Virus record (IMG/VR): IMGVR_UViG_3300027917_000026
DNA: 64,000 bases
Source of the DNA: an uncultured virus (IMG/VR IMGVR_UViG_3300027917_000026)
Taxonomy: Duplodnaviria; Heunggongvirae; Uroviricota; Caudoviricetes
Reading direction: 5' to 3' (one strand)
Part shown: in pieces, positions 19,219 through 49,829 of the stretch
Layout: each line of letters opens with the position of its first letter
Position numbering within the stretch: the first letter of the stretch is position 1
Translations under genes and position numbers: made by a program
Notes under the pieces: generated by a model
Told to the model about the DNA's origin: nothing
The model's database searches: none
Seen by the model: the letters and a program-made list of their open reading frames with translations, nothing else

Positions 19219-19403
19219 GCATTCGTGTAACAGGTGACAGAATACCGCACATTTTTAAGTACATGGAATATGATGCACTGTCAGAGGGGCAACACAACCT
19301 AGTCATTAAATACGAAGAATTTTATTTGAAAAATAAATATCTGACGACAAATCAGATGGAAGTTTTAGAAGATATATTCAAACAAGCCGCCGAAAATATT
19401 TAA
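19215..19403 (+). CDS. hypothetical protein, last gene of the + strand block
   Basis: GAGGAG RBS; stop overlaps the stop of the convergent gene in TTAA 19400-19403. Confidence 0.6.
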   Translation: MSIRVTGDRIPHIFKYMEYDALSEGQHNLVIKYEEFYLKNKYLTTNQMEVLEDIFKQAAENI

Positions 19404-19813
19404 GCCTTCTTATTATGCTTGAATCCTCTAATATCCAACAAGTGCCTTTTGAATGCCGAGAAATTGACTACCAATTCCGGCGCAATATCTGACAGCAATT
19501 CAACTTTGATTGAAGCAAAGTGAGCAACCGGTACATTCATTGATTTAATTTCAACATCTTTAAAAGAAGTCATTTTATCAATGAACCCACTTGACTTTTT
19601 GAAAAACCCATAGTAGTCAATTGCAAATATATCTTTATGCTCTAAGGTATAACCCACAAAATCGGCAAACTCACTTTTGAAAAGTCTTCCCTTTTTTGCG
19701 GGAACCTGACGCTTTTTAAAGATTTCATTATTGCCAATACTTGCTACAATGACTTTATTCTCAAAATCTTCCCTGTACTGAATCAGATCCAAATTAATTT
19801 GTTGTTTCATCAT
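19400..19813 (-). CDS. hypothetical protein, last gene of the - strand block
   Basis: 137 aa overlapping the end of the GT-A gene. Confidence 0.6.
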   Translation of the reverse strand: MMKQQINLDLIQYREDFENKVIVASIGNNEIFKKRQVPAKKGRLFKSEFADFVGYTLEHKDIFAIDYYGFFKKSSGFIDKMTSFKDVEIKSMNVPVAHFASIKVELLSDIAPELVVNFSAFKRHLLDIRGFKHNKKA

Positions 19814-20858
19814 AACCCCATTTCTTTAGCCATTCGAAGATTGTCATTTTAGATCTAGCTTTTATATGATCTCTTTGATCCTTACACAATCGCGGGATAT
19901 CTTGTAGTATATTTTGTTTCACATTAGGCCGACCACCCGACTTTGCTACATGTTCTTCAAACCATGTTTGCCCACCGTATAGATACGCGGCAATACAACG
20001 ATTGCGCAAAGTGTCGCCAGAATTGAATGCATACCCGCGTTTTTCTCCATGATGGTATAACGCCGTTTTAACAGGCATGATCCATTTCTTTTTATCCATG
20101 ACCCCTAAAGTGAAATTCATAAAATGTTCACCACCACTGTAGATCCCTAATTCTCTAGGCCACCCGCCGACCTCTTCATACAAATCCCTTGTCATCATCA
20201 TGCCACATGTAGACATACAAGGAACCTCATAAGGTTCGGCCTCTTGTCGATATGAAGCAAAACGATAATCCAATTGAACCTTATCAGGATTGCGGATAAA
20301 TCGCAAAGAGTAGATAAGCCTATGCCATTCAAGGATCTTGTAAGTCAACGGCAAATGCAATGTTCCATTCATTTCTTGATAATGATCTTTGTAGTAAAGG
20401 TATTGATCGAATATAGAATCCCTACCCGCAATGCAATGTGCATCGATAAAAAGAAGATATTTGCTGTCAGACGATTCAACACCTACCCGCTTTGCATTCC
20501 AATGTGAAAGCTTATCTTTGTAGTCAATTGTTCTAAGCCATTTATTTCCGGGCATACAATTCTTTAAAACCTGACCACCTTGATCTTCCGCGCCAATGCC
20601 CACTTCCATTGCATCAAACCAATTGCATATTGCCGTGTAGTCATCCTCAATTTTGAAACGGTTTTTCAATTGCCGAGCCAACCATCTTGATTGATCTCGA
20701 TCCTGACGAATAACTTCTTTGCAATAGTTGTTTACGGCAATTACCTCAAAATCAACTGGATCCCATCGATTCGATAGTTCTTCATTTATACTTTGCAACG
20801 TGAAGACAAGTTGCGGATACTCATTTACAAATGGCACTATGATTGATAATTCCGGCAT
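19794..20858 (-). CDS. GT-A fold glycosyltransferase (GT2/GT27-like, DxH motif)
   Basis: LSIIVPFVNE, LLFIDAHC, YEEVGGW...YSGGE. Confidence 0.88.
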   Translation of the reverse strand: MPELSIIVPFVNEYPQLVFTLQSINEELSNRWDPVDFEVIAVNNYCKEVIRQDRDQSRWLARQLKNRFKIEDDYTAICNWFDAMEVGIGAEDQGGQVLKNCMPGNKWLRTIDYKDKLSHWNAKRVGVESSDSKYLLFIDAHCIAGRDSIFDQYLYYKDHYQEMNGTLHLPLTYKILEWHRLIYSLRFIRNPDKVQLDYRFASYRQEAEPYEVPCMSTCGMMMTRDLYEEVGGWPRELGIYSGGEHFMNFTLGVMDKKKWIMPVKTALYHHGEKRGYAFNSGDTLRNRCIAAYLYGGQTWFEEHVAKSGGRPNVKQNILQDIPRLCKDQRDHIKARSKMTIFEWLKKWGYDETTN

Positions 20859-20860: not shown

Positions 20861-21529
20861 CTACATTTCCTTTCTTCCATATTGACCAGCGAAACTCATT
20901 ATCTCATATCCCTTCTCAAACCATACCGCATCTTTGTAGGCATTGACCTTTTCGATTAGGCTTGCATAGGTTTTAGTTATTCTTTGATATGCGAATCGTG
21001 GTAGTAATTCCATTGGCGACCATGAACGCGGATTCCATTCATTCCATTGAATCGGCCTATTGAGAAATTTCTCAATGACTACACGGTTTTGAAACATGGT
21101 TTCATATCTGACAACCAAAACAGGGTAGTCATGTTTTTTACTAGTCCAACTATCGAACATTTTTTCATAGTTAAACCAATCTTTTTCAAACAAATCAACA
21201 TTTGCTAAGTTGGTATAGCATCCACAATTCTTCGCATGAACATGGTCAAATCGGTGTCTTGCTGTAGACACAACGGCGGCAATCGGATCACCAAAAACCC
21301 AAATGACTTTTCGCTTATTCCTACAATGTTCCCAAAGTTGTTCATGCCATGGATCATGGTAGTGATCGGGCGGCGCGAGACTATGACATTTCATTACAGG
21401 CAAAGCCGCTAATGCCGCGCCTTTTGGCGAACCACTACCTTGCGGCAAACCCGCCACGGAACGAAAAAGGTATGTGGTGCCACAACGCGGCATTCCAACA
21501 ATTGCTACCTCTTTTTCCTTACATTCCAT
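20861..21529 (-). CDS. sulfotransferase-like protein
   Basis: 5'-PSB-like loop GMPRCGTT, DPIAAVVS, VVRYE. Confidence 0.7.
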   Translation of the reverse strand: MECKEKEVAIVGMPRCGTTYLFRSVAGLPQGSGSPKGAALAALPVMKCHSLAPPDHYHDPWHEQLWEHCRNKRKVIWVFGDPIAAVVSTARHRFDHVHAKNCGCYTNLANVDLFEKDWFNYEKMFDSWTSKKHDYPVLVVRYETMFQNRVVIEKFLNRPIQWNEWNPRSWSPMELLPRFAYQRITKTYASLIEKVNAYKDAVWFEKGYEIMSFAGQYGRKEM

Positions 21530-21531: not shown

Positions 21532-22302
21532 TTACTCCTTTCGCAACACAACACCGTGTTGACCGTGGTAATATAATATCTCATTTATTTTTCGAGTTGA
21601 AGCGGTTCTATCAATTACTTCAAAACCAATATCTTCACACATCAAAACCATTCTATTCATAGATATCTTCAAATTGATTTTTTGAATATTCGATTCCGAT
21701 TCAATGTAGGGAATGTGCTTTTCCTCATCCTCAATTGCTTTGCGCCATTCTATTTCTGTTTCATGTTTCTTTTTTCTGAATAGCCTAGAGAAATAAATGA
21801 CTGCAACACCACCTGTTTTCAACGTGCGATAACTTTCACGCAAGTAATTCTTTGCAATTTTAATCTTGCCTAGATGCATGAAAACAGTCCATGAAAAAAT
21901 GAAGTCAAAATAATTATCATCTGCCGGAATCGATTGACCATCGGGCGATTCCAGAAGTTTAAAATTAAAGCACCCCTGTTTTTTTAAGATATCACCAACT
22001 AAGTCATTGGCACCATGAATGTCTACACCAAATGACTTTTCAAAATGTTTTGCGGCGGCGGCAACTAGCAAACCCGGCCCATATCCAATTTCTAATGATC
22101 GTTTCCAACCTGACCGCAAATGACTTTCCGCAAACGGTAGGAATTGCGAACCGAAAACAGAATTCCTACTTGACCCTTGCTTATCCGCGCCGCCATGGGA
22201 TATAGAATAGAAGCGATATAGCGCACGTTGCGGATCATCTGAATTCCTTATTTTCAAAAGTGCTTCTTTATATCCATCAGGAGTGCATTTTAATTTTGTC
22301 AT
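21532..22302 (-). CDS. class I SAM-dependent methyltransferase
   Basis: LEIGYGPG, GVD, FDFIFSWTVFMHL, LKTGG. Confidence 0.88.
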   Translation of the reverse strand: MTKLKCTPDGYKEALLKIRNSDDPQRALYRFYSISHGGADKQGSSRNSVFGSQFLPFAESHLRSGWKRSLEIGYGPGLLVAAAAKHFEKSFGVDIHGANDLVGDILKKQGCFNFKLLESPDGQSIPADDNYFDFIFSWTVFMHLGKIKIAKNYLRESYRTLKTGGVAVIYFSRLFRKKKHETEIEWRKAIEDEEKHIPYIESESNIQKINLKISMNRMVLMCEDIGFEVIDRTASTRKINEILYYHGQHGVVLRKE

Positions 22303-22305: not shown

Positions 22306-23535
22306 TTACTTCCTTTTTATAGGTTGTTTTCTTGCGACTATCTTTTGACCAAAAAACCAATCAATTTCATTTATCTCAATTGGATACATTTCTTCGGGTA
22401 ACATTGCAAGCATCATTTTCATGGAGATATTGTGCAAATGCCACTTCGGCATTGACTCTTTGCGCCATGGCTGATAATAAGGGCTTGGCCAGTAGAGATA
22501 CATTAAACCACCTATTTTCAAAACCCTTGACCATTCCTTTAATGCTATTTCGGGCGATTGCAAATGTTCAACACAATGACTACTAAAAATAAAGTCCACG
22601 GTGTCGGGATGCTCATTTATTTTGTAGGCATGTTCATCCTCACCCTCACCAATTGGTCTTGCCCCCGGAAGCGGATGATTACCCGCGCCGATATCCAAAT
22701 ATCTACCACTATCACGGTCCAGACTTTCGATCCAATCAAGTGCATCTTTTACTACAAATTGCACTTGATTATGTTGCTCTAATTCCTTTATCTTCCGCAA
22801 ACCCTGTACCATTCTGTGAACATCTGATGTTTGAATTTCTTTTAAGCATAGGTGTTTGATATCATTTTCGCAAGGTGATGGATTATAGCAATAACTACAC
22901 CACTTTTCATTGCACATATTGATTTGATCCTCATAACCATTCCATGACGGATGAGCAAAACCACCGTAGATAACAATTGCTTGTGTACCAACAGCCTTTG
23001 CAATGTGAGATATTCCGCCTTCCGCGCACACCACGGCATCACAACCAGAAATGAAGTAAACAAGATCTTTGATTGACGGTACTCTTGGTATTGCTACATA
23101 ACCCGGCCGTCTTGCCAATTCAGCAAATTTAGGCCAAACCTTTTTGGCATCCCAATGACCTTTATGTAGTAATTGCACACCCACAATTGGTGGTGTTTGC
23201 GGCGTGTGTTTTGGCAACTTAAAATGAATTTCGGGGTTCAGTATTGGCTTTTGTGTAGTCAATTGTGCATTTTCACAAATGATCTTCCAATCTGAAATTA
23301 TATGATGACAGGTGGGCCATTTGCGATGAATCGGATCGGGATACCCAAGAAAAATTGCCTCCTCTTTTCGATCCACGCCAATGTGATCAACATAAGGATT
23401 ATCTTCAAGTAATTCTGGAAAATTGGTATTGACTACAATTTCACTTTGTGGGTATGCCTCTTTTATACGCCGCAAAGTTGGGGTAACAAATAGAAGATCT
23501 CCAATTCCGTTAAAGCTTTTGATTTTGATAATCAT
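22306..23535 (-). CDS. GT9 (ADP-heptose heptosyltransferase-like) fused to C-terminal SAM methyltransferase
   Basis: GGAGG RBS before ATG 23535; GIGDLL, KKVWP, EGGISHIAKAVG, Cys cluster CSYC..C..C; then LDIGAG, SSHCVEHL, LKIGG. Confidence 0.85.
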   Translation of the reverse strand: MIIKIKSFNGIGDLLFVTPTLRRIKEAYPQSEIVVNTNFPELLEDNPYVDHIGVDRKEEAIFLGYPDPIHRKWPTCHHIISDWKIICENAQLTTQKPILNPEIHFKLPKHTPQTPPIVGVQLLHKGHWDAKKVWPKFAELARRPGYVAIPRVPSIKDLVYFISGCDAVVCAEGGISHIAKAVGTQAIVIYGGFAHPSWNGYEDQINMCNEKWCSYCYNPSPCENDIKHLCLKEIQTSDVHRMVQGLRKIKELEQHNQVQFVVKDALDWIESLDRDSGRYLDIGAGNHPLPGARPIGEGEDEHAYKINEHPDTVDFIFSSHCVEHLQSPEIALKEWSRVLKIGGLMYLYWPSPYYQPWRKESMPKWHLHNISMKMMLAMLPEEMYPIEINEIDWFFGQKIVARKQPIKRK

Positions 23536-23551
23536 CTTTACCTCCATTCTG

Positions 23552-24847
23552 TTATAATGCTTTAATACCTTTACCCCAAATTTTTGATTCCTGAAAAATT
23601 GGTTCATAATAATGTAGATAAAGGTTGTCCATATTATAGATCCGCCGCATATAAGTGCGTGTCAAACAACCTTCATTCTGAACAAATCGACCCAATACCA
23701 GATTTGCTACATTGTCAAAATATTCATCCCAACTCATATCAGGCTTAATATTCTTAGGATCAAAAATATTATGATGTGAACCAAAGTCTACATATAATCC
23801 AGAATTGCCATATATTTCAAGCATCATATAAAGACTTTTATTCAACACCATATAATTTCCGGCAAGTGCCGCCTCTGGGCCGACAAGCCCGAATGATTCT
23901 TCAACAGTGGGAAACATAAAAATGTTTGAACAAAGTAGTAATTCGCGCAACATTCTTTTTGTGATTCCGGTATTATATTTTTCATCCCATTCAGAAGTAA
24001 AAACAAATTCGTCAGGATCTAAACGTGCTTGTGCCGCAATTCTATGATAGTCAGGTAATTTTTGTTCGTGAGGCCGCCCATACCATTGATTTGCTACAAC
24101 CAAGAAAACACTGAATCCTTTACTTTTAATTGCACCAAAAAATTTGATTACTTTATCCACTTGTTTTGCATGTAGTCTATCCGTTGACGCGGGGTACACT
24201 TGAATAAAATCGGATTGCATCATTGCGGGGTAGTCATCTATAAATCGGCGGGTTTCTGGATGAAAATCATAAAAGCTTCGTAAATCCTTGATATGCGGTA
24301 TTATACGAACATCTTCAACGTGGCCTCTGAATTGTTCAGCAACCCTTGTGCGCTCGGTGTTGTTCGGGAAGATAAGTTTGTGATTCGGCCCATACCGTCT
24401 AATATCCCACCAATCATTCATTGTGCTAGGCACACTATGAATCCAATGTAGCCATCTGGCATTCGGCACATGTGGGCTTGCTTTGCGAATAGCTAATGAA
24501 TATGGAAGATTCCATCCAGTGAAAACCCAATCATGGGTAAAAATGTAGTCAATGTTGTGTTCATGAATTTCACCAATTAAAATTTCTTTTAATTTTTCTG
24601 CATATCGTTCATGCTTTTCGGATAACCTTTTCTCGGTGTGATAGTCATCCAAATGCACAAAAGGTATCTTCCGCAAAACCTCTGCCTGTAAGGGTTCATC
24701 ATATGCCTCATTATAGGTATCACATGTGTAGAAAAAAACTTTATTGTCATATCTTGACAACATTTCACATTGATCTTTTACAATACCTGATAAGGAATAG
24801 CCCGGATGGAAGTCTTGAAAGTTTGTGAGGATAGCAATATTAGCCAT
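23552..24847 (-). CDS. GT-B glycosyltransferase (GT4-like)
   Basis: EESFGLVGPEAALAG (Ex7E) motif; AAGGAG RBS. Confidence 0.85.
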   Translation of the reverse strand: MANIAILTNFQDFHPGYSLSGIVKDQCEMLSRYDNKVFFYTCDTYNEAYDEPLQAEVLRKIPFVHLDDYHTEKRLSEKHERYAEKLKEILIGEIHEHNIDYIFTHDWVFTGWNLPYSLAIRKASPHVPNARWLHWIHSVPSTMNDWWDIRRYGPNHKLIFPNNTERTRVAEQFRGHVEDVRIIPHIKDLRSFYDFHPETRRFIDDYPAMMQSDFIQVYPASTDRLHAKQVDKVIKFFGAIKSKGFSVFLVVANQWYGRPHEQKLPDYHRIAAQARLDPDEFVFTSEWDEKYNTGITKRMLRELLLCSNIFMFPTVEESFGLVGPEAALAGNYMVLNKSLYMMLEIYGNSGLYVDFGSHHNIFDPKNIKPDMSWDEYFDNVANLVLGRFVQNEGCLTRTYMRRIYNMDNLYLHYYEPIFQESKIWGKGIKAL

Positions 24848-24892: not shown

Positions 24893-25552
24893 TTATGATT
24901 TTGAGGTAGTCTTTATTTCGTATTTAAAGACTTTTTGTATTTCATCATGCTTGAATACTTTATTTATTGTATCATGTTTAAAAACCCTGTTTTGGTCTTG
25001 ATACTTGAAGATAATTTCTGGATCACTCGCAGGCAATACAGTGTTTTCAAGCCATAGGTAGTCAACATGAAAATGATGTGTCGGTGTGCCTGACCAATTA
25101 TGATAAATCCGAATTCTGAATTGTTGACTACTTACATAATTAGAATATTCATCACCATCGATGCTAAACGTGTAGTCATCCTCTGTTGCCCTTGACGGAA
25201 AATCACCACTATCCGCCGTGAAGTCATCCCATTGACTCAAAGTAAAATTCCACTTTTGTATTTTAACTAAGTGCGCGGGGTTGCCCTGATAATAGCCGTT
25301 TAGATGGATATCCCATGAAGTCATTACAACTGGCAATCCCTCAAAATAAAATTGAAAGTCAAAGCCGGGGTTGCCTGTTACTTCTTCAAAAACCATCGGC
25401 GTGCCATCGTCTGAACGTGTATCATTTAACGTTCCAGAATCAAGATTGCCAATGGTCAGGATATAACTACTTGCATAATACCACGGCACCGTGGTTGTGG
25501 TGGTGCTAGTGGTACTGGTGGTTGTAGTTGTTGTGGTCGTGGTAGTTGACAA
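24893..25552 (-). CDS. virion-type protein with N-terminal poly-Thr tract and C-terminal 9-aa repeats
   Basis: TTG start; 20-residue S/T run; beta-rich domain; (K/R)VFK(H/Y) x3; in frame with the upstream ORF across one TAA. Confidence 0.7.
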   Translation of the reverse strand: MSTTTTTTTTTTSTTSTTTTTVPWYYASSYILTIGNLDSGTLNDTRSDDGTPMVFEEVTGNPGFDFQFYFEGLPVVMTSWDIHLNGYYQGNPAHLVKIQKWNFTLSQWDDFTADSGDFPSRATEDDYTFSIDGDEYSNYVSSQQFRIRIYHNWSGTPTHHFHVDYLWLENTVLPASDPEIIFKYQDQNRVFKHDTINKVFKHDEIQKVFKYEIKTTSKS

Positions 25553-27226: not shown

Positions 27227-27430
27227 TTAAGTAGTTGTTGTGGTTGTAGTGGTTGTTGTGGTTGTCGGGCCAGATCCACCACCACCAACACGTTGCCATC
27301 CCGACTCTCCACCACGTATCAATGGCGGATGACCTTTTTTCTGATCGATACGAAGATTATCAGGACTAAAACTTTTCACCGCATCCCGACCAATTTTTTT
27401 CTTAATAATTTTTACAGGTGGTTTTGCCAT
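27227..27430 (-). CDS. small basic protein with GGGGSGP linker and C-terminal T12
   Basis: GGAGTAAAA RBS; ends GGGGSGPTTTTTTTTTTTT. Confidence 0.75.
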   Translation of the reverse strand: MAKPPVKIIKKKIGRDAVKSFSPDNLRIDQKKGHPPLIRGGESGWQRVGGGGSGPTTTTTTTTTTTT

Positions 27431-27441: not shown

Positions 27442-28116
27442 CTAAGTTGTTGTGGTTGTTGTGCTGGTCGTAGTTGTTGTGGTACTTGTAGTTGTAGTAA
27501 TTCGTACCCTCTCAAAAACATCATCTGACGCGGGTACACCATTTGAATCAAACAGATTGAATCTAGCAATTTCTGTCACATTATCTTCATCATAAAAAAT
27601 CATTTGATTCGTTGTTGTATCAATTTTCCAACGACCACCTTCCATTGAATGAATAAATTGTGTCTTCGTATAAATGTCCGACAATTGGGCTTGCTCAGAA
27701 GGTGTCAATCCACTTCCACTATCAACTTCACTTATTGTCGGTGATGAAGACAATGCCCTATCAACAGTGATATAATCTGTTGGATATCTAGGATCTATTG
27801 GATCACCATTATCATCTACTGCAACTAAATTTCCGCCGCTTATTATACATAAAGTCCAACTAGGGCCACCTCTTGCTTCAAAAGCTAAAACAGCATTATT
27901 AAGCGTTGCGGTAATTCCTACAAAGTCAGTGGCACCGATTGGTTCTTTACCACCCGCATCAATTAGGTAGTCAAATACAAGTCCGTTTGGACTATCCTCC
28001 AAATATTTGCAAGTGTCGTATAAGTCCTGAACTGTTATTTCCGTAGAGGGTGACGCAACAGTTAACAATCTAGGGCTTAAATCCCAATCGATGCTGACAT
28101 CACTTCTTATCGTCAT
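27442..28116 (-). CDS. virion-type protein with C-terminal poly-Thr/Ser tail
   Basis: 224 aa; 18-residue T/S tail; TVQDLYD motif echoes 28317..30848. Confidence 0.75.
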   Translation of the reverse strand: MTIRSDVSIDWDLSPRLLTVASPSTEITVQDLYDTCKYLEDSPNGLVFDYLIDAGGKEPIGATDFVGITATLNNAVLAFEARGGPSWTLCIISGGNLVAVDDNGDPIDPRYPTDYITVDRALSSSPTISEVDSGSGLTPSEQAQLSDIYTKTQFIHSMEGGRWKIDTTTNQMIFYDEDNVTEIARFNLFDSNGVPASDDVFERVRITTTTSTTTTTTSTTTTTT

Positions 28117-30916: not shown

Positions 30917-32626
30917 TTAAGTAGTTGTTGTGGTTGTGGTTGTTGTCGTTGTGGTTCCAATCCAAGTATTTAGCGGATCTACAACTAATGTTATTGACAA
31001 TGACAAACCACTTGCACCGATAGTTTGTAGTGAACTATATGCCTTATATTTTGTGCCACCATATGCGCCACTTGCCTCCCTTGCCCTAACCTCTGCTTCG
31101 GCAGGTGTTGACCCTGTATAATTTGCACTGACCTCACCACTTGCATTTGTTACCGTATTAACTACTTCCGTTCTGTCAGATGTTAAATAAATTCCAACCC
31201 TCACATCTTTAAGCGTATTGCCATCTTCATCCTTTACGGTAATTGCAATCGGCACTGATCCAGTAATATTTACAGTATCACCCGTTCTTGCCTTGTAGTA
31301 ACTTATCGTGCCTGTCGTTCCAGTATGGGCAACAGTCCATGTGGTATCACTACCTTTATCTGGAAAGTAAAGAACAGAAGTTGTTTGTTGGTCAGACGTG
31401 CTAAAATCAGTGAAAGTCATGTTAGTTAAATTGATAGTGGTCGGCGCGGAAGTACCAAATTCAATTGCATGATGTGACCCCGCGCCTTTTGTGAAAGTCA
31501 TATCATTTAAGTAGGTATTTGGATCACTAGATTCATTCCATAAAAGCGCACCACCACCCGCACTGCCGCCACCTGTAACAGCCGATACAAGAATGCTAGA
31601 ATAAGATAAATCTCCGCCACCCGGATCTACTTGCAAACACCTGACCCACCTACATTGCAAGGCAACTGTATTGGAGTCAAATGTAAATGTTCCCATATCT
31701 TGAAATGAACACGTTTCAAGATTTATATCAGCATTTGCATTTGTAACCCATCTTCCTTTTGATGCATTTGTTGATGGAGTAATACAGATAAATTGAAAGT
31801 TAGTCATATCAACGCGAGAACCAGAATTATTTACTTCAATGGTATTAAAGTTTGACGTAACTTTTGGACACCATTTGACTAGAATAATTCTGTTACTATC
31901 TCTGAAGTCAACTGCATTAGACGCGGTGCCAAGAGTCATCTTACCTTGCCACAAATAACCACCAAGCACGCGAGTTATCAAGCCCCATCTATTGTAGCCA
32001 TTTGTTCCATCATTATAGGCATCCTCTGTAGCAAACCCGTCTATCGTGCAATAATCAGCCGTTTCACCAAATTCAAAAATTGACGAACATCTTCCATATC
32101 TAATTGCATCACAACCATGCGGATAACCCTTGCCCGAACCAGTCGCCACATTAACAGTACTACCCACAACCTCTTCAGATGTTGTTGGCGAACCAACTGT
32201 AACATCGACACTGACAGTAGTATTTACAGCATTGCAAACCCATCCGCCAGCCGGATATGGCGGAATATCTACACCACCAACATGCCAGACATAAAAATGG
32301 TTTGGGTCATTTCCTACAGCAATCCCAAATCCGCCATTGCTGTAATTTTGCAGGTTACTATTTACTCCGTACATTTGCCAAACCAAATATGCACCATCGG
32401 TTCCATGACCACCTGTACCACTACCATTATCATAAGCAATAGATCCTAATGCTGTTTTCGTACAAATCTGCGTAATGGCGTACTGGCCTTGAATAAATTG
32501 GTAGTCAGTATCAGCCGCAATTCCTCCTTGACCATCATAGTTGCCAGCTTGCAACTCATCCCAACCACTAGTTGATTCGGCAAGATTAAAATCAGTTAAA
32601 TCTTCTGTATAACTAGGCGCGGTCAT
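30917..32626 (-). CDS. virion-type protein (beta-rich, C-terminal Ig-like domain) with C-terminal T12
   Basis: 569 aa; ITVKDEDG...TNASG; ends GTTTTTTTTTTTT. Confidence 0.75.
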   Translation of the reverse strand: MTAPSYTEDLTDFNLAESTSGWDELQAGNYDGQGGIAADTDYQFIQGQYAITQICTKTALGSIAYDNGSGTGGHGTDGAYLVWQMYGVNSNLQNYSNGGFGIAVGNDPNHFYVWHVGGVDIPPYPAGGWVCNAVNTTVSVDVTVGSPTTSEEVVGSTVNVATGSGKGYPHGCDAIRYGRCSSIFEFGETADYCTIDGFATEDAYNDGTNGYNRWGLITRVLGGYLWQGKMTLGTASNAVDFRDSNRIILVKWCPKVTSNFNTIEVNNSGSRVDMTNFQFICITPSTNASKGRWVTNANADINLETCSFQDMGTFTFDSNTVALQCRWVRCLQVDPGGGDLSYSSILVSAVTGGGSAGGGALLWNESSDPNTYLNDMTFTKGAGSHHAIEFGTSAPTTINLTNMTFTDFSTSDQQTTSVLYFPDKGSDTTWTVAHTGTTGTISYYKARTGDTVNITGSVPIAITVKDEDGNTLKDVRVGIYLTSDRTEVVNTVTNASGEVSANYTGSTPAEAEVRAREASGAYGGTKYKAYSSLQTIGASGLSLSITLVVDPLNTWIGTTTTTTTTTTTT

Positions 32627-33077
32627 TCTTAAACATCTCCATTCTCTTTTTTACTTCTTGTTTAATCCATGGTAATTCAACACCTTTGGCTCGATGCACA
32701 ACAAAAGTTCCATTGCGGTGAATAACTACTGAAAAACCATCTTTTAAGAATGCTTTGATTTGTTTTCCTACAACGCTATTGATATCATAGTCTGGATCCA
32801 CAAGTCCGAACATTATTTTATTTTCGCCAATTCTTTCAAAAATTACATGGCAGTTATTCGGTCTTAATGATGGATTACATTTTTCCATTGCATTGTAGGC
32901 ACATTTATATTCTTTGCAACGTTGCGGTATTGCTAAGTTGTAAATCTTGCAACCATTCTTGGGATCACAATGCCTACACCACTTTCCGGCTGGGCTGTCC
33001 ATCCAAAATACATCTAACAATTTGCAACATAGCGTGCAGTCATCACATTTCACGTTGGCACCTATCAATAATTTCAC
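32613..33077 (-). CDS. CxxCxxCC (YkgJ/FliB-like) metal-binding protein
   Basis: CDDCTLCC ... CRHC ... CKIY ... C; start uncertain. Confidence 0.75.
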   Translation of the reverse strand: MKLLIGANVKCDDCTLCCKLLDVFWMDSPAGKWCRHCDPKNGCKIYNLAIPQRCKEYKCAYNAMEKCNPSLRPNNCHVIFERIGENKIMFGLVDPDYDINSVVGKQIKAFLKDGFSVVIHRNGTFVVHRAKGVELPWIKQEVKKRMEMFKNDRA

Positions 33078-33441
33078 TTGTAGATGTTCTGAAACGAAAG
33101 TTGATAAATTTGACTTCGGCTAAATCCTCACCCACAATGGGTTTGCCTTTCCAATCCGCACCTTTAACAATGTAGTCAGGCTTGACCATTTTTATTGTTT
33201 CATATAATTCGGGTTCGCCATCAAAAATAATTACTTCATCAATCAATCGAATTGACAACAAAATATATTGTCGTTGATCCTGATTCATAATAGGTCTGCC
33301 ATCACCCTTTAATTCGTGAACGGATCTATCAGAATTTAAACCGACAATCAGATAGTCACCAAAACCCCTTGCTTGCTCGAAGCAATCAATGTGACCTGGA
33401 TGTAGTAAATCAAAACAACCGTTTGTCCATACCTTAATCAT
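33043..33441 (-). CDS. hldC: D-glycero-beta-D-manno-heptose-1-phosphate adenylyltransferase (HldE domain II)
   Basis: WTNGCFDLLHPGH, VGLNSDRSVHELKG.GRP, VKGADW, STS. Confidence 0.92.
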   Translation of the reverse strand: MIKVWTNGCFDLLHPGHIDCFEQARGFGDYLIVGLNSDRSVHELKGDGRPIMNQDQRQYILLSIRLIDEVIIFDGEPELYETIKMVKPDYIVKGADWKGKPIVGEDLAEVKFINFRFRTSTSEIIDRCQREM

Positions 33442-34744
33442 TTATACCTCCTTTATGATAGTAAGTATCGGCGTCTGAATGGTGCGTGCTAAATTCAATG
33501 AATGTAGCAAACCCTGTTTCCGCCTTGAATCTGTGATTGATCCCGGGCCTAATCCGAAAGAAGTCACCCGCCCCTAGCCTATGAATTTTGTCATCCAAAA
33601 TATCAAGTAGTAAAACACCATTGGTCACATAAAAAGTTTCATCTTTTTTCTTATGACTATGATATTTGCCTTTACTACTCCACACACTATGTACTGTTAA
33701 CTCTTTGCCGCAGTACATATCATTATTTTCGATCCACTTTTCAAAACCCCAATCCTTCGACACATGCTTTGCCTTACTGATTTTAAATTTCTCATCTTGG
33801 AAGATATCATCCCAAGTGACCGTTGCGGTTCCTACTTTTGAAACCACCATTGATGATGCTTTATTGGCATATCTCAATGTAGTACTTGTCGAAAACTTTC
33901 CGCGTTCAACTGCACCAAAGACAAAACCAAGTACAGCAAAAAATGTGTCACCCGCACCTGTCAGATCATTTACTTCAACGAATTCAGATTCGATTTTCAA
34001 GGGTTTCTCATAATAAGTGCGACCTTTATCCATATATAATAAACCATCCTTGCCAAGAGTGACTACAAGCCGTTCCGTATCGGCACACTCATCCAGTATT
34101 TTCTTTGCGGCAAGTTGGTAGTCATTTTCAATGCCTGATGCCAAACCCGCTTCATAACGATTGCATTTTATCAATTCGACTTTTCCATATTTCATGTAGT
34201 CAACTTTATTATTTGGCGGATCAACTAAAATATTGGTATTGCCACATGATTGAATTTCATCAATTACTTCATCTGTAATAACGCCCTTGCCATAATCGCT
34301 TATCATAATAACATCAACTTCCGGCAAGATATGATTCAATCTTGATCTAAGCGTTGCGGTAATTCGTTTGTCTACAGGTGCCATAGATTCAGTATCTAAG
34401 CGGCATACCTGCTGACCATTCGCAATGATCCTATTTTTCAAGGTTGTCGGTCGTTTGTCATCGATGATTAACCCTGAAGTATTTATCCCATACTTATCAA
34501 GTAAATGAATTAATTCTTTTCCTTGGTTATCATTTCCTACAACACCGACAATGTAAACTTGCGCACCTAGCGCAATCAAATTACTACAAACATTACCCGC
34601 ACCACCGGGCATTTCGTTTGAATTGCCATCCATAGTAATTAATAGTGCAGATGCTTCTGGATTTACCCGATTGTTAGTGCCGTACAAGTAGGTATCCAGC
34701 ATTACATCACCGACAACTAAAATTTTTGGATTTTTGTTTTGCAT
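33434..34744 (-). CDS. hldA: heptose-7-phosphate kinase (HldE domain I, PfkB family) fused to C-terminal cupin
   Basis: VVGDVMLD, PGGAGNV, TTLKNR, SDYGKG, DLTGAGD; C-terminal KDWGFEKW...HSHKKKDETF...HRF cupin. Confidence 0.92.
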   Translation of the reverse strand: MQNKNPKILVVGDVMLDTYLYGTNNRVNPEASALLITMDGNSNEMPGGAGNVCSNLIALGAQVYIVGVVGNDNQGKELIHLLDKYGINTSGLIIDDKRPTTLKNRIIANGQQVCRLDTESMAPVDKRITATLRSRLNHILPEVDVIMISDYGKGVITDEVIDEIQSCGNTNILVDPPNNKVDYMKYGKVELIKCNRYEAGLASGIENDYQLAAKKILDECADTERLVVTLGKDGLLYMDKGRTYYEKPLKIESEFVEVNDLTGAGDTFFAVLGFVFGAVERGKFSTSTTLRYANKASSMVVSKVGTATVTWDDIFQDEKFKISKAKHVSKDWGFEKWIENNDMYCGKELTVHSVWSSKGKYHSHKKKDETFYVTNGVLLLDILDDKIHRLGAGDFFRIRPGINHRFKAETGFATFIEFSTHHSDADTYYHKGGIND

Positions 34745-37429: not shown

Positions 37430-37653
37430 TAATCCTCCCTTTTTTGCCCCCGACTCACTAGGATTTCAAGAAGAGTAACCATTTTGGATTGTCTCTCAAT
37501 GTCAGCTTGACTTCCATTTACCAATTTGCTGATAGTCTCATCCTTTTTCACAATAATTCGATACATAAGGTAGATCACTGTCAATAGCGCAACCACAGCA
37601 GGTGTAAATTTGAAAATTTCAACAATAACTTCAGGTTTTAGCAATTGTGTCAT
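37429..37653 (-). CDS. single-TM coiled-coil protein (holin-like)
   Basis: N-terminal TM followed by coiled coil. Confidence 0.55.
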   Translation of the reverse strand: MTQLLKPEVIVEIFKFTPAVVALLTVIYLMYRIIVKKDETISKLVNGSQADIERQSKMVTLLEILVSRGQKRED

Positions 37654-37943
37654 GTCGTCGTCGTAGTACTAGTTGTTGTCGTGGTGGTTGTAGTTGTTGT
37701 GGTCGTTGTAGATATATGGTGATATCCCGGCTCAAGTGCCTTACGTTCCCAATTTTGACTACTTGATTTATAAACAAGAATATCTCCATTCGTCAAACCT
37801 GTTGTGTCGGTATCCAACAATGCTGTAAATTTCAATAGGGTATTATTCAATACCGTCCAATTATAATTTACTACATCAGTGCGCCAATTGGTGTACCCAA
37901 TATCACAATACCTTAAACCACTTGATAATGCATAATAAGCCAT
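37650..37943 (-). CDS. short tail-fibre-module protein with C-terminal poly-Thr tail
   Basis: N-terminal module paralogous to 37953..38162 and 40706..42298; 19-residue T/S tail. Confidence 0.75.
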   Translation of the reverse strand: MAYYALSSGLRYCDIGYTNWRTDVVNYNWTVLNNTLLKFTALLDTDTTGLTNGDILVYKSSSQNWERKALEPGYHHISTTTTTTTTTTTTTSTTTTT

Positions 37944-38170: not shown

Positions 38171-40696
38171 CTAAGTTGTTGTGGTTGTAGTTGTTGTGGT
38201 TGTAGTTGTTGTCGTTGTTGTAGTAATATCCAAACAAGCAAACTCAACAAATCCAGTCGGTGGCGAATAATCCCATTCATCCGAAGATAATCTAATTGTA
38301 ACTTCATCATTAGTATTGTAAAGCGCCGCCGCCGCTTGAAACTTATCTCCACTCAAATTACTATATGCTGGATCCGTATCAGTTGCGGGATTAGGCGAAC
38401 CACTACCTTGCCATGTATTATTTTTCGACCACCATATTTTATTTGTAGCTAAATTAATTGCTACACCAATAACATCACCCGTTGTGTAGGTACTTCCAAA
38501 ACTCGAACTTGAGGTGTTATAGGTAACACCTGTAGTATGATAACCCCATGAATCATTGGTTTGACCAACATAATTTGATACAATAAAATCTTCGTTGCCA
38601 ATACCTAACAATAATTCATTAGCACGATTATCTACATAAAATTCAAAGTAAAATTTATTTTGTCCAAATGCACCCTTTGCCGTGAAGTACTTGCTAACCG
38701 CTGATTTCCAACCAAATCCTGTTGCTTTAGCATTTCTATTTCTATCTGATAAAGTGATATTACTACCTATGTCAACAGGATCAAAACTACAATTGTATAG
38801 CGGCATTGTAACAGTTGTAGTACTTGTCGTGGTGGTTGTAGTTGTTGTGGTTGTAGTTGTTGTCGGCCAAACATCATCACAAGGCATTCCACCAAATCCT
38901 GTTGGCGGAGTATAATCCCAATCACTGGAATGTAGGTATAATCGCCATTTGGTATTCAAAGCATATGCGGCGACAAACGCATATATTTCACTACCATCAA
39001 CATCGTCAAACGCTGGATCCGTGCCACTCGCGGGATCAGGAGAACCACTTCCTTGCCATACATTTTCTTTTGCAAACCAAATTTTACCTGTAGAACTATC
39101 AATATCATTAACATCAATTGCTACACCAATTCTATCTCCAGCTGTATATGAAGAACCAAATGATATGTTCGATCCATTGTGATATTTCTCACCTGTTTGT
39201 CCACGATAACCCCAGCCATACTGATCGCTTCCCGGATACGTGGATGGAACCGCATTCTCATTTCCTATACCAATTATTATGTTGCCATCACCCATAGTAA
39301 TTGGTTCAACTTCGAAGTAAAACTTACTTGTACCCATTCCATTGACAACATAAGGTTTAGAAATTACTCCTTTCCATTGACTGGTTGAAGTTATTCTTGT
39401 TGCATCAACATTGCCGTTGCTCAATCCAACCAATGCATCTTTATTCGCTGGATCCCACGCACAAGCATATTGAGGCACTGTTACAGTAGTCGTTGTTGTT
39501 GTAGTCGTTGTTGTTGTAGTCGTTTGTGTGATTAATGAACCATACCAATAAATTTCACCACATTGCACATAGCTAGGATCACCGTGATTGTCAGTTATAT
39601 CAACTCTATGATATCGATAATAGGTTGTCGAATCGACAAAGTAATTTCTTCTTTCACCATTACTCCAACTAGGCTCACTTGTTAATGTTTTTAAAGTGTA
39701 CCAATCGGAATTATTATTACTACCTTGAATTGTAAAGTCTTTTGGTGCCCTATATTCTTCAGATAGGTTGTTTACCTGATATCCTACAACTTGTATCTTT
39801 GCGGCGCGGTTTACACCAAAATCTACTTTCCACCAACCAACACCACCACCTGTCTCACCGACCCAATATTGACTAGAGCCAATTTGTCCATCTAATGCCT
39901 TCCAAGCATTTAGCGTAACATATTCAGAATCTGCGCTGACAGTTCGATTATTTCTGGTATAATCAGTCCAAGTGTGCGGTGCTAAAAGATCAGGCGCGGT
40001 TGATGTAGTTGTTGTGCTTGTTGTCGTTGTGCTGGTTGTAGTTGTTGTGGTTGTAAATCCCTCATAGTAAAGCGCATAAATTTCCTGTTGTGTCAAGCCA
40101 CCACTACCACCAAGAGTATAAATTTTTACATGATCGATTCTTCCATCAATGCCATTGGTGTTGTCAGCCTTGCCCCCTATGACTACACCATCAAAGCCTG
40201 TCGCATCCGCGTTCCCAAAGGATCCAGCCCGATCCAACTCTTTTACTCCATTAACCCACAACTCAAAATTTGTAGTTGTTTTCTGCACAACCATATGATA
40301 CCAAGTGGTTGCTGATACGGCAAAGCCTGACCCTGCCGTTGCCTGATCATCTACCTCATATGCACCCGCGCCGCCGCTTGCCGATCTAGTTATATGCACC
40401 CTTGCGGCACCTGTTACCTTCACCAAACCGATGCCACTATTGGTTCCATCCGAATTACTACAAACAACCAAAGGCCGATTGACCGAATCTGTTGGCACCG
40501 TATCGAAGCGAACAAAAAATGATATTGCCATGTTGTTATTCAATTCACTTGGAAATGACTTCGTTCGCACAAAATCAGTACCATCAAAGTCAAGTGCAAA
40601 TGATCCTAACGACACACCTGTCTTTGTAGCTGTTTGTGTTGCATCAAAAATTAATGCATTGTAATTGGCTTGCTGATCTGGTAATTTAATTGCCAT
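38171..40696 (-). CDS. multidomain adhesin: LamG-like, discoidin(F5/8)-like and two SPRY/B30.2-like domains joined by poly-Thr linkers
   Basis: WYHMVV..LWVNG..GRIDHV (LamG); WWKVDFG..PKDFTIQGSN..YRYHR (discoidin); twice KFYFE..GIG..GDxIGVA..KIW..PP.GF (SPRY); four T-tracts. Confidence 0.82.
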   Translation of the reverse strand: MAIKLPDQQANYNALIFDATQTATKTGVSLGSFALDFDGTDFVRTKSFPSELNNNMAISFFVRFDTVPTDSVNRPLVVCSNSDGTNSGIGLVKVTGAARVHITRSASGGAGAYEVDDQATAGSGFAVSATTWYHMVVQKTTTNFELWVNGVKELDRAGSFGNADATGFDGVVIGGKADNTNGIDGRIDHVKIYTLGGSGGLTQQEIYALYYEGFTTTTTTTSTTTTSTTTTSTAPDLLAPHTWTDYTRNNRTVSADSEYVTLNAWKALDGQIGSSQYWVGETGGGVGWWKVDFGVNRAAKIQVVGYQVNNLSEEYRAPKDFTIQGSNNNSDWYTLKTLTSEPSWSNGERRNYFVDSTTYYRYHRVDITDNHGDPSYVQCGEIYWYGSLITQTTTTTTTTTTTTTVTVPQYACAWDPANKDALVGLSNGNVDATRITSTSQWKGVISKPYVVNGMGTSKFYFEVEPITMGDGNIIIGIGNENAVPSTYPGSDQYGWGYRGQTGEKYHNGSNISFGSSYTAGDRIGVAIDVNDIDSSTGKIWFAKENVWQGSGSPDPASGTDPAFDDVDGSEIYAFVAAYALNTKWRLYLHSSDWDYTPPTGFGGMPCDDVWPTTTTTTTTTTTTTSTTTVTMPLYNCSFDPVDIGSNITLSDRNRNAKATGFGWKSAVSKYFTAKGAFGQNKFYFEFYVDNRANELLLGIGNEDFIVSNYVGQTNDSWGYHTTGVTYNTSSSSFGSTYTTGDVIGVAINLATNKIWWSKNNTWQGSGSPNPATDTDPAYSNLSGDKFQAAAALYNTNDEVTIRLSSDEWDYSPPTGFVEFACLDITTTTTTTTTTTTTTTTT

Positions 40697-40705: not shown

Positions 40706-42298
40706 TTAAGTTGTTGTCGTTGTTGTTGTAGTCGTTGTTGTTGTAGTCGTTGTGTAGTTATCCACATTTCTGATATAGAAATTCTTTGTGTATCCTGATA
40801 TCGTTGCTGTTCCAGATGCATCCCTACTTCCAACCGCAACTAAATATCTCAATGTCGTGGTGTGACAAATAGTTGTTAGGCTATCAACTAACGTTTCCCT
40901 ACATTCATCTGAAAAGATATCAAGATACAGATTGCTACCTATTCGATAGAAATTAAAATACCAATGACCTGTTGTTCCACTTCCCACATATGTATCTGTT
41001 ACCGCATTATAAGGATCAAAAAGTTCTATTGTTAAATTGCCAGCGTTGTTATATATTGAAACAGTAAAACCATTATTTGAATTATCTATATCCTGATAGG
41101 TTCCAGTGCTATTAGAGATAGCACAAACCATCACAAAACCATCGGTATCAGATGCAGTTATTTCAGCCTCAAATTTTACATGGAAATCACCAAAGTTACC
41201 CGCGCCATGATCTTCTGAAATCCAACTATTCGCAACACGTTGCATGGTATCAAATGTTGCCGTATGTAGATATCTAGTCAGATCACCCGCACTATCGGTT
41301 TCATCATATGTAGTCAAATCCTCATAAGGCATTGTGTACCATACATGCAGTTCAACCACTTCGGCGGCGGATGCATGTTCATATGCTGATAGATCTCTAT
41401 ATACCCAAGAACCAGAAGCATTGTCTCTAATTTGCGCAATTACTGCATCACCACATTGCCAATTGGCGGCATCAATAATAGTTTGCAAAATTGTTTTTAA
41501 TTGTGGGGTGTACCATTCTTCGCCATCATACCAATAACCTTGCGGTATCCAATTGACAGCAGAAGTAAGACTTGCACCTGTTATCTCAGTAGCATTTGCA
41601 TAGGCATCTGGATTCTTTGCTGTATCAAAGTAGATATTTACATTCGGGTTGCCTGTTTCTTTTGTGCTTTGTGCCGTGACTTTCATGTAGGCACTTTGAA
41701 TCGTTGCCCCCTCTGGAATAGTGACACTATCAAATCTAAAGAAGCCATATACTGCAAAAGATGAATATTTACCCATGTAGATATTAGCGGATGTATTACT
41801 ATAATTTGTGCCACCCGAATAGCAACGCCCATCATCTGTACCCGCCGCAATTAAGAATTGACCACCAATAGCCGATGTAGTTGTTGTGCTTGTTGTCGTT
41901 GTTGTGCTTGTTGTCGTTGTGGTGGTCGTACCTTCCATGTTATAGAAAATCAGCATTTGAGCCGCCGCCACGGTGGTTGTTGTAGTCGTTGACGTTGTGG
42001 TGGTTGTCGATGAGGATGTTGTACTAGTTGATGTTGTACTAGTTGATGTAGTACTAGTGGTTGTAGTGGTTGTGGTTACAGGCAAAATAGTATTATACGG
42101 CACATTAATAAATTTTTGTGTCGGCTGATCCCACACCAACATATCATTATTTGCCAGCGAAGTAATATTGGTATCAATCATGCCATCGACATAGAGCAAT
42201 ACATCGTTGAGCAAACGTGTATTTCTCTCCATGATCTCATTCCATGCTTGAGTGCCATACCCCAATTTTTGTAGTAATGTTGGTGAAAGTTTTGCCAC
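40706..42298 (-). CDS. tail fibre/adhesin with three poly-Thr/Ser tracts
   Basis: N-terminal fibre module; FRFDSVTIPEGATIQSAY beta-sandwich; T15 C-terminus. Confidence 0.78.
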   Translation of the reverse strand: MAKLSPTLLQKLGYGTQAWNEIMERNTRLLNDVLLYVDGMIDTNITSLANNDMLVWDQPTQKFINVPYNTILPVTTTTTTTSTTSTSTTSTSTTSSSTTTTTSTTTTTTVAAAQMLIFYNMEGTTTTTTTSTTTTTSTTTTSAIGGQFLIAAGTDDGRCYSGGTNYSNTSANIYMGKYSSFAVYGFFRFDSVTIPEGATIQSAYMKVTAQSTKETGNPNVNIYFDTAKNPDAYANATEITGASLTSAVNWIPQGYWYDGEEWYTPQLKTILQTIIDAANWQCGDAVIAQIRDNASGSWVYRDLSAYEHASAAEVVELHVWYTMPYEDLTTYDETDSAGDLTRYLHTATFDTMQRVANSWISEDHGAGNFGDFHVKFEAEITASDTDGFVMVCAISNSTGTYQDIDNSNNGFTVSIYNNAGNLTIELFDPYNAVTDTYVGSGTTGHWYFNFYRIGSNLYLDIFSDECRETLVDSLTTICHTTTLRYLVAVGSRDASGTATISGYTKNFYIRNVDNYTTTTTTTTTTTTTTT

Positions 42299-48548: not shown

Positions 48549-49829
48549 TTAAGTCGTTGTGGTTGTAGTACTTGTGGTTGTAGTACTTGTGGTTGTCGAA
48601 ACAGCCGCACCCTCTAAAACTGCACAGTAGTCATAATAAGTTGTTCGATGACAATTCTGAAAAATCCGATATCTGTCACCCGCATAGTTAACGTGATCTT
48701 CACTCTGGATACCGGTACCCGCTATATGATATACTCCATCTAAATCAAACCATACCACTGATCCTGTATCATCATATGGCGTGTAGTAAACAGGTGTCAT
48801 TAACCTTTCACCGTTTTCTGTTGGGGCAAGCGCACCTTGATTACTCCATGCATCGTAAGGTAATATAATCGGGCCATTGTTTTGTCCAAAACTTCCCTCC
48901 CATGCACAAATGCCTGTACCCGGATCTATAATCCAAACATTTAGACTATTGTTTTGTCTATAACTACCCAAAGGCCACAGATGATAATATGATGTTTCGG
49001 AGTAAAGATATGTGCTTGTAGTGGTTCCGCCAATTAATAGCGGAAACGGATAATCACCGGGATTGCCAAAACGTCTTCCAAAACCAAGATACATAATCTC
49101 ATAATTCGAAGACACTTTGACAACCACAACAATTCTTTGTTGATTGGAGTAAACCCAATAACTCATTGTATCATCTACGAGTGGTAAATGTGGGTGTTCT
49201 GTAAAGCTATTATAAGTAGCACTGTAGGCATCCATATTATGCCATGCGGAATTCTGATCCCATTCACCAGAATCATTGAATGTAGTATATCCATTCAAAT
49301 CCCAAACATAAAAATTTGCGCTTACATAATAGCATTCACGAATTCCCACAATGACTGCCTCTTGCCCTGACAATCCTGTATTGGAAATTACTACCTCTTT
49401 ACAGGGTGAACATACTTCTGTATAACCAGCACCTTGATTATCTCTTGTGTTTCGATTTAATTCCTGCCGCCAATCCTGACCCTCATTTCCATATATGTAG
49501 TCAGCCGTGGGTGTTGCATCAGGCGTGCCTGTAAACGTAATACTGTAGGCACCTGTCGAATATGTAATTGAGCCGGAAGATATATTTGTACCTGTAATAT
49601 TTCCAGACCCATCATCTACACCCTCATAATTGGTCGATGAAAAAGCGTAGTTAATTATCAACCGACCTAAACCAACTGGCGAATTGGCAAGTGTGCCCGA
49701 CCATGCCGCACCCGTTCCACTAAGGTTTTCACCTGTTACTTCAGTACCAAGTATTTGACCCAAAATGGTTTGTAGTAAACCTGACGCACCCGCAAACGCC
49801 GTGACCGTACCTGTATTATAATATGACAT
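48549..49829 (-). CDS. tail virion structural protein with C-terminal poly-Thr/Ser tail
   Basis: directly after tape measure; YPFPLLIGG; 16-residue T/S tail. Confidence 0.75.
   Translation of the reverse strand: MSYYNTGTVTAFAGASGLLQTILGQILGTEVTGENLSGTGAAWSGTLANSPVGLGRLIINYAFSSTNYEGVDDGSGNITGTNISSGSITYSTGAYSITFTGTPDATPTADYIYGNEGQDWRQELNRNTRDNQGAGYTEVCSPCKEVVISNTGLSGQEAVIVGIRECYYVSANFYVWDLNGYTTFNDSGEWDQNSAWHNMDAYSATYNSFTEHPHLPLVDDTMSYWVYSNQQRIVVVVKVSSNYEIMYLGFGRRFGNPGDYPFPLLIGGTTTSTYLYSETSYYHLWPLGSYRQNNSLNVWIIDPGTGICAWEGSFGQNNGPIILPYDAWSNQGALAPTENGERLMTPVYYTPYDDTGSVVWFDLDGVYHIAGTGIQSEDHVNYAGDRYRIFQNCHRTTYYDYCAVLEGAAVSTTTSTTTTSTTTTTT

Follow-up and report, generated by a model that had tools for sequence, protein, structure and literature searches.

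We analysed a glycosyltransferase gene, named GT-A below, in a 64,000-nucleotide stretch of DNA from an uncultured virus (IMG/VR record IMGVR_UViG_3300027917_000026), which we call the window. The window belongs to a tailed phage: its plus strand encodes a DNA polymerase and gp32-like, RecA/UvsX-like and SbcCD-like proteins, and its minus strand encodes the portal, scaffold, major head, major tail, tape measure, tail and fibre proteins. In the late block of the minus strand only one gene comes after GT-A. GT-A lies at the end of a cluster of soluble glycan-tailoring proteins, which reads, in the order of transcription, as a protein with an N-terminal Thr tag, a second glycosyltransferase (GT-B), a fusion of a GT9-like domain with a methyltransferase, a methyltransferase, a sulfotransferase-like protein, GT-A and a small protein, p137. 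The late operon holds three glycosyltransferase genes, and between positions 19400 and 28116 the intergenic gaps on the late strand range from -56 to +136 nt. The coordinates of the features are collected in Table 1.

GT-A is a real gene and not a chance frame, as shown by its homologues, its Pfam match and its conserved motif core. The original prediction, made from the letters of this DNA alone, had singled out this open reading frame (ORF) by the motifs SIIVPFVNEYPQLVFTLQS, NAKRVG...LLFIDAHC, EVPCMSTCGMMMTRDLYEEVGGWPRELGIYSGGE and LYHH, and all of them are present, in this order, in the checked translation of an ATG-started minus-strand frame of 354 amino acids (aa). A homologue search matched 785 proteins at E <= 0.001, the best with 85% identity, and among the 120 matches listed most are 44–52% identical across 97–99% of the length. 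The only Pfam family matched by GT-A is Glycos_transf_2 (PF00535; 29.5 bits for a cut-off of 23.3), which spans GT2, GT27 and others and is also found in 42/42 members of the GT-A family (best E 4e-15); PHROGs and NCBIfam gave no family for GT-A. D139 and H141 (both in FIDAHC), G242, G243, E244, H269 and H270 are invariant in an alignment of these 42 sequences, so the quoted motifs are the conserved core of the family, and a helical insert at residues 47–104 is variable. No membrane segment was detected in GT-A (maximal 19-residue Kyte–Doolittle mean 1.02), and its structural model opens with a beta strand at residue 4.

The AlphaFold2 model of GT-A, built on the 42-sequence alignment (pLDDT 94.2, pTM 0.92), supports the idea that its catalytic domain is built like that of the GT27 polypeptide GalNAc-transferases. 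In a Foldseek search of the PDB with this model, the 30 matches listed were all GT27 enzymes (E 4.1e-14 to 9.5e-10, TMq 0.59–0.67, identity 12–16%). VIA-align, an exhaustive structural alignment against 48,161 representative chains, placed mouse GalNAc-T1 first (Z 26.4, rmsd 2.9, 285 residues, model 2–352 on chain 116–427) and T. gondii GalNAc-T3 second (Z 25.3, 279 residues), the next folds being WrtF (19.3), a Leptospira glycosyltransferase (19.2), heparosan synthase (18.9), TarS (18.4), SpsA (18.1) and TarP (17.7). Both catalytic halves, the nucleotide-binding half and the Gal/GalNAc-T half, and thereby the whole catalytic domain, superpose on solved GT27 members (mouse GalNAc-T1 8v9q, human T2 2ffu/4d0t, T10 2d7i, T. 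gondii T3 6s22/8uhv). Viral models from BFVD match GT-A less well than GT27 structures do (best E 2.7e-11, TMq 0.59). In this check against GALNT structures the best matches are therefore not generic GT2 chain extenders, and the colinear GT27-like match noticed in the original prediction is borne out by Foldseek, by VIA-align (26.4/25.3 vs 19.3) and by the profile search described below.

When a profile of the 42 homologues was run against PDB sequences, the top three were GalNAc-T10 (2d7i, E 1.8e-4), the GalNAc-transferase of 6s22 (3.1e-4) and GalNAc-T7 (1e-3), and GT27 enzymes made up 9 of the 18 sequences listed, with TarP (E 2.5e-3), a Pyrobaculum mannosyltransferase and TarS interspersed among them. 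HMMER alignments (2d7i, 6s22, 6iwq) are colinear with the family over up to 245 profile positions and pair the family FxDAHC with LDSHC/LDAHC, GGEN with WGGEN, and H270 with the His of VGHVFR. D139, H141 and H270, invariant in 42/42 sequences, align with the DxH and the distal His of GT27, which are the metal ligands of these enzymes. The GGE of the Gal/GalNAc-T motif aligns with IWGGEN, but the Trp is replaced by Tyr followed by Ser or Gly (IYSGGEH in GT-A, IYGGGEN in the family consensus), and PF02709 appears in only 2/42 family members, at E 0.055. PF11397 (GT60, cytoplasmic or Golgi polypeptide alpha-GlcNAc-transferases) gave no match in any of the 42 members at E <= 1, in a search whose HMMER filters may lose very weak matches, and a single-sequence phmmer search of the PDB with GT-A returned no GT27 enzyme and one unrelated match (E 1.9). 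The likeness of GT-A to GT27 is one of fold and active site, and falls short of establishing membership in GT27 or GT60 proper. GT27 members are Golgi enzymes with a type II membrane anchor and stem, most of them with a C-terminal ricin-type lectin domain, and they transfer GalNAc from UDP-GalNAc to Ser/Thr of peptides with retention of configuration, whereas GT-A is phage-encoded, is predicted to be cytoplasmic, and has neither the stem nor the lectin domain; the replaced Trp and the insert at residues 47–104 also set it apart. The absence of the lectin domain, already remarked on in the original prediction, is seen from the end of the protein, which coincides with that of the matched catalytic domain (the aligned range of GalNAc-T1 stops at residue 427), and Pfam scans of GT-A and its 42 family members found no lectin family.

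The candidate acceptors of GT-A are poly-Thr tags, defined here as runs of at least seven Thr or Ser residues of which at least six are Thr, in a six-frame scan of the window. There are 15 such runs in ten virion-module proteins, on the minus strand without exception: in nine the next codon is a stop, one begins right behind the start Met, and the other five are internal. Together they contain 235 Thr and 27 Ser (90% Thr), and their Thr codons are a mixture of ACA, ACC, ACT and ACG, which argues that the tags are kept at the protein level, by selection on the peptide, and are not a DNA repeat. The poly-Thr tags proposed originally are thus real. Being Thr-rich and disordered, these presumed acceptors resemble mucin repeats. 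A Ser/Thr run of variable length, with at least five residues, closes 110 of the 120 homologues nearest to the tail tube protein; in 13 of these 110 (P0152, P0156, P0158, P0164 and nine others) it is poly-Ser instead of poly-Thr. A few tail tube homologues have Ser/Glu-rich tails or no tag, the untagged ones lying on short contigs. The match of the window's major tail protein to phrog_807 ('major tail protein with Ig-like domain') is confined to the N-terminal part of this family (residues 7–97 on profile positions 4–92 of 256), and the protein ends in T12 at the place of the family's surface Ig-like domain. The 52-aa and 67-aa mini-proteins consist of a short head and a Thr12–17 tail, and little else.

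Poly-Thr runs accompany GT-A in other phages. We compared 71 related viral loci that carry a GT-A relative (identity 31–63%, GC 0.30–0.60), and found poly-Thr runs in open frames within 10 kb of GT-A in 42 of them. After removal of eight near-duplicate loci the count was 36/63, vs 3/78 in random viral loci, which had been sampled with an arbitrary 14-mer (118 returned, 78 of them of at least 4 kb). The density of runs was 24.2 per 100 kb near GT-A (277 runs) vs 0.28 per 100 kb in the controls (3 runs). Ten of the 15 GT-bearing records that have no run nearby carry Thr7-codon runs elsewhere, including 5/5 of the records that are at least 90% complete, and such runs were present in 0/10 random records of 56–92 kb. 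The nearest related record, G001, is a 49-kb fragment (58% complete) in which Thr runs are present and the glycosyltransferase region is lacking; it is uninformative.

The same loci were used to measure co-conservation by tblastn of all window ORFs. GT-B is co-conserved with GT-A in 57/71 loci, upstream on the same strand in 56 and on the opposite strand in one; p137 is found on the same strand in 27/71, in many of them directly adjoining GT-A, and the other genes of the cluster are present in only 3–11 of the 71. A reverse scan starting from GT-B gave 80 loci, 56 of which contain GT-A; six loci have the full 10 kb downstream and no GT-A, and in three of these GT-A lies farther along the same contig. 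We then sampled the ORFs between GT-B and GT-A (113/267, from 22/49 loci) and found a Pfam match at E <= 1e-5 for 53 of the 113. All but one belong to glycan-building or tailoring families: the matches are 23 methyltransferases (two fused to GT9), 12 further glycosyltransferases, nine hexapeptide acyltransferases, three epimerase/dehydratases, two UDP-sugar dehydrogenases, two radical SAM enzymes, one sulfotransferase and one M15 peptidase. Since GT-B and GT-A are co-conserved and the genes between them vary, the conserved architecture is GT-B, a variable tailoring cassette, and GT-A. In some relatives radical SAM enzymes are encoded within the cassette (L003:4665-5645 and L036:9055-9936), and the cassette of L006 includes a C-methyltransferase (PF08484). 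A rule that a poly-Thr tag closes the gene immediately preceding GT-B was dropped, as it holds in only 9/64 distinct loci.

The best-supported reading of these observations, to which we give about an even chance, is that GT-A starts the O-glycosylation of the poly-Thr tags; in this way the phage probably coats its particle with sugar. What is established here is the gene with its fold and motifs, the existence of the tags, the setting in the operon and the joint occurrence in other phages; that the acceptor is a protein and that GT-A initiates is what we infer, as are the sugar donated and the sequence of the steps. GT-A would be a soluble, metal-dependent enzyme made late in infection from the virion operon, which in the host cytoplasm would bind a nucleotide sugar through a metal site formed by D139-x-H141 and H270 and transfer a first sugar to the hydroxyl groups of Thr in the disordered tags. 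The tags are carried by ten virion-module proteins, namely the tail tube, tail and fibre-like proteins and two mini-proteins. GT-B and the variable enzymes encoded between GT-B and GT-A would then extend and decorate the chain; in the window these would be the GT9-like heptosyltransferase/methyltransferase fusion, the second methyltransferase and one or two sulfotransferase-like proteins, and an HldE-like heptose pathway of the phage would feed the decoration. The predicted outcome is a mucin-like glycan brush on the tail and the fibres.

Several observations weigh against an initiating role of GT-A on these tags. The sequence similarity between GT-A and GT27 is marginal, with 12–16% identity and profile E values of only 1e-4 to 1e-2, and the teichoic-acid enzyme TarP scores within the GT27 range in the profile search (E 2.5e-3). 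As far as excerpts of PMC11032452 go, a bacterial gene annotated as a polypeptide GalNAc-transferase is equated with TagN, a decorator of wall teichoic acid, so that a GT27-type annotation is no proof of a protein acceptor. The major head protein has no tag. The Fisher p of the co-occurrence (7e-13) is overstated and is not a true probability, because the loci are those of related phages; five of the 15 GT-bearing records without a nearby run have no Thr7 run at all, all five being 51–80% complete. The link is also one-sided: among 80 flanked viral loci retrieved with a Thr12 pattern, a member of the GT-A family (E < 1e-30) lies within 10 kb in five loci, on two contigs, and three more loci are on contigs that carry GT-A farther off. 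Poly-Thr is thus much wider than the GT-A family, and giant-virus contigs are included. Finally, GT-A and GT-B are inherited together (57/71 and 56/80 loci), and therefore their distribution cannot tell which of the two primes the tags.

GT-A is nevertheless ranked above GT-B as the primer because it is closer by 6–7 Z units to peptide O-glycosyltransferases than to other folds, and because the tags are dominated by Thr. GT27 enzymes prefer Thr, which the composition of the tags fits, and Ser-rich repeats are the substrates of the GtfA and Sdg systems. We consider it fairly unlikely that the GT4-type GT-B primes the tags, in the manner of GtfA-GtfB and SdgA/SdgB on serine-rich adhesins, and that GT-A adds a later or capping sugar. 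Such an order would agree with the conservation of GT-B, which equals that of GT-A, with its position at the head of a cassette beside tagged genes, with the poly-Thr-ending ORF that stops at most 400 nt upstream of it in 9/64 distinct loci, and with the presence of GT4 protein O-GlcNAc transferases among its fold matches. The GT-B model (pLDDT 93.2), however, matches generic GT4 enzymes of lipid, thiol and polysaccharide synthesis best (Z 15–16.4: a Rickettsia glycosyltransferase 16.4, PimB' 16.2, MshA 15.6, BshA 15.5), and the protein O-GlcNAc transferases come lower (GtfA Z 12.4, rank 25; SdgB 11.8; OGT 11.7) and therefore give no specific pointer to a protein acceptor; moreover, the tags are 90% Thr, whereas the targets of GtfA and Sdg are Ser-rich. 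The proposal of the original prediction that GT-A is the best candidate for the primer is strengthened by the poly-Thr co-occurrence and by the generic fold matches of GT-B, the only other conserved glycosyltransferase, and GT-A keeps the status of a candidate.

Less probable still is that GT-A acts on a non-protein acceptor, either a host wall polymer or lipopolysaccharide (for receptor masking or superinfection exclusion, as in the case of TarP and TagN) or a free glycan, and that the poly-Thr runs are plain flexible linkers. TarP, TarS, heparosan synthase and SpsA are among the next-best folds (Z 17.7–18.9), TarP scores like GT27 in the profile search, and 5/15 runs are internal linkers between domains; the TagN case, as excerpted from PMC11032452, points the same way. 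GT27 nevertheless leads these enzymes by 6–7 Z units, the gene is in a late virion operon and co-occurs strongly with poly-Thr, and nine tags are terminal, directly before the stop, where there is nothing to link. In addition, no membrane-like segment was detected in the proteins encoded from 19400 to 27214 (maximal 19-residue Kyte–Doolittle mean 1.50), and no membrane protein, flippase, polymerase or initiating phosphoglycosyltransferase was found among them, which makes glycosylation directly in the cytoplasm more likely than a pathway through lipid-linked polysaccharide. Glycosylation of the phage DNA by the cluster, as a base hypermodification against restriction, would be a common role of phage glycosyltransferases according to excerpts of 10.1101/2023.12.21.572611 and PMC12619734. 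We regard it as highly improbable here: no hydroxymethylase, TET/JBP-like or other base-modifying gene was seen among the replication-module proteins scanned, the sulfotransferases, the heptose pathway and the GT27-like fold do not fit, and the co-occurrence with poly-Thr would be left unexplained.

Besides GT27, the proposed initiation of tag glycosylation by GT-A can be compared with three known systems. Virion O-glycosylation is proven for mycobacteriophages (Che8 gp108-110; Freeman et al. 2023, cited in PMC11256854 and PMC12619734), where capsid and tail tube subunits carry the glycans at their C-termini (PMC12619734); in the passages available of PMC11256854 and PMC12619734, phage particle glycosylation is demonstrated in only a few mycobacteriophages. 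The likeness lies in phage-encoded glycosyltransferases combined with Ser/Thr-rich C-termini on virion subunits, and in the tail tube protein, glycosylated at its C-terminus there and ending here, like eight other proteins, in a Thr tag. In the phage of the window, however, the tags are almost pure Thr homopolymers and occur on ten proteins, fibres and mini-proteins among them, the head protein is untagged, and the conserved GT-B...GT-A bracket surrounds a variable tailoring cassette. The enzyme families differ as well, since hhalign of the GT-A family with Che8 gp108, gp109 and gp110 gave probabilities of 39.7, 0.4 and 0.3. Serine-rich-repeat adhesins of Gram-positives (GtfA-GtfB, SdgA/SdgB; GT4) share with the proposed system a stepwise cytoplasmic O-glycosylation of low-complexity Ser/Thr tracts by soluble enzymes, and the presence of a GT4 GT-B and of GT-A enzymes in one cluster. 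In these systems the GT-B enzyme primes and the tracts are Ser-rich, whereas the phage tracts are 90% Thr and nothing specific links the fold of the phage GT-B to GtfA (Z 12.4, rank 25). The GT2 wall-teichoic-acid enzymes TarP and TarS, of which TarP is reportedly phage-encoded, have in common with GT-A the GT-A fold and PF00535, but their fold match to GT-A is clearly weaker (Z 17.7–18.4 vs 26.4) and their acceptor is a polyol-phosphate polymer.

The GT-A family is essentially phage-borne and uncultured. In 50,697 GenBank phage records there is one weak match, a glycosyltransferase of a Tunturiibacter phage (24.7% identity, E 4e-7), and in representative genomes of 185,579 species there are seven loci, all on contigs of metagenome-assembled genomes (four Deltaproteobacteria or Desulfobacteraceae, one Proteobacteria, one Thermoplasmatota and one Thorarchaeota). 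The viral contigs retrieved number more than 100 and range in GC content from 30 to 60%; some are complete genomes that have terminal repeats. No GT27-like phage enzyme and no poly-Thr virion tag was found described in the literature on phage virion glycosylation, polythreonine and phage or prokaryotic GT27 homologues. We tentatively consider it possible that uncultured tailed phages of a large clade possess a mucin-type O-glycosylation system that is self-contained and works in the cytoplasm. In it, genetically encoded poly-Thr runs on tail tube, fibre and mini-proteins would be portable signals for glycosylation, a lectin-less GT27-like enzyme the primer, and an exchangeable tailoring cassette, enclosed by two fixed glycosyltransferases, the means of diversifying the glycan. 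If so, the enzymes that start mucin glycosylation in animals would have their nearest relative outside the eukaryotes in this phage family, which would bear on the origin of GT27 and of the pathway, and the system would be different from, and much wider than, the virion glycosylation of mycobacteriophages. It would affect the phage surface presented to hosts, grazers and immune systems, and a simple transplantable tag (a run of ~12 Thr) with a compact soluble primer enzyme would provide glyco-engineering with a kit for mucin-type O-glycosylation in the bacterial cytoplasm.

Table 1. Features of the window and the basis of their assignment
Feature	Coordinates	Strand	Basis
p137, 137 aa, last gene of the operon	19400..19813	minus	no Pfam, PHROG or NCBIfam family
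GT-A glycosyltransferase, GT27-like, soluble, without lectin domain, 354 aa	19794..20858	minus	ORF list, Pfam, homologues, model
Sulfotransferase-like protein	20861..21529	minus	PF00685, E 3e-7
SAM-dependent methyltransferase	21532..22302	minus	PF08241, E 7e-11
Fusion of a GT9 heptosyltransferase-like domain with a methyltransferase	22306..23607	minus	family scans
GT-B glycosyltransferase, GT4-like, 431 aa, conserved partner of GT-A	23552..24847	minus	family scans, comparison of loci, model
219-aa protein with an N-terminal 20-residue poly-Thr tag right after the start Met, beside GT-B	24893..25552	minus	six-frame scan
218-aa protein with a GGHGTTY motif resembling a sulfotransferase P-loop	26016..26672	minus	inspection only, no family match
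67-aa mini-protein ending in T12	27227..27430	minus	six-frame scan
224-aa protein with a C-terminal 18-residue Thr/Ser tag	27442..28116	minus	six-frame scan
569-aa fibre-like protein with a Big_1 domain, ending in T12	30917..32626	minus	family scan and six-frame scan
Split HldE-like pair	33043..34744	minus	PHROG/NCBIfam scans
97-aa protein with a C-terminal 20-residue Thr tag	37650..37943	minus	six-frame scan
841-aa fibre-like protein with LamG, F5/8-type-C and two SPRY domains, three poly-Thr linkers, ending in T17	38171..40696	minus	family scan
530-aa large fibre-like protein with two internal Thr/Ser runs and a C-terminal T15	40706..42298	minus	six-frame scan
Structural protein (phrog_687) with a C-terminal 16-residue Thr/Ser tag	48549..49829	minus	PHROG and six-frame scan
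Major tail (tail tube) protein (phrog_807), ending in T12	53407..53967	minus	PHROG and six-frame scan
52-aa mini-protein with a C-terminal 17-residue Thr tag, just downstream of the major head protein gene	55934..56092	minus	six-frame scan

Among the neighbours of GT-A, p137 has a start that overlaps the GT-A stop by 20 nt. Its matches in the ESM Atlas are unnamed clusters only, with TM < 0.4, and a complex prediction of GT-A with p137, run without controls, scored 0.00, which is no evidence either way. Scans for consensus promoters and terminators around the cluster gave results at or below chance.

The HldE-like pair consists of a heptose-7-phosphate kinase with a C-terminal cupin (phrog_7851, residues 323–429), encoded at 33434-34744, and of a heptose-1-phosphate adenylyltransferase encoded as a separate gene at 33043-33441, both on the minus strand; the HldE arrangement is here split and re-fused. 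Judging from these family assignments, the pair likely supplies nucleotide-heptose. It is flanked on the same strand by cysteine-rich proteins with CxxC-type clusters (32613-33077 and 34745-35308), one of which matches phrog_9155, of unknown function; Pfam gave no family for either.

Three small putative membrane or secreted proteins are encoded between the fibre and the sugar genes, at 35970-36416, 36693-37193 and 35313-35768 (minus strand). One shows a lipobox-like LIVAIAGC, one is hydrophobic and multi-pass, and one has an N-terminus resembling a signal peptide; together they may form a lysis or spanin module. Between the portal gene and an endolysin-like gene, a 923-aa protein (59099-61870, minus strand) matches DUF3626 (E 5e-15) and no PHROG family. 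PF07737, the metalloprotease domain of the anthrax lethal-factor type, is matched weakly and below threshold (E 4e-4, 20.5 bits vs a cut-off of 27.4), and the protein may be a large one of the head or of ejection that includes an enzymatic domain.

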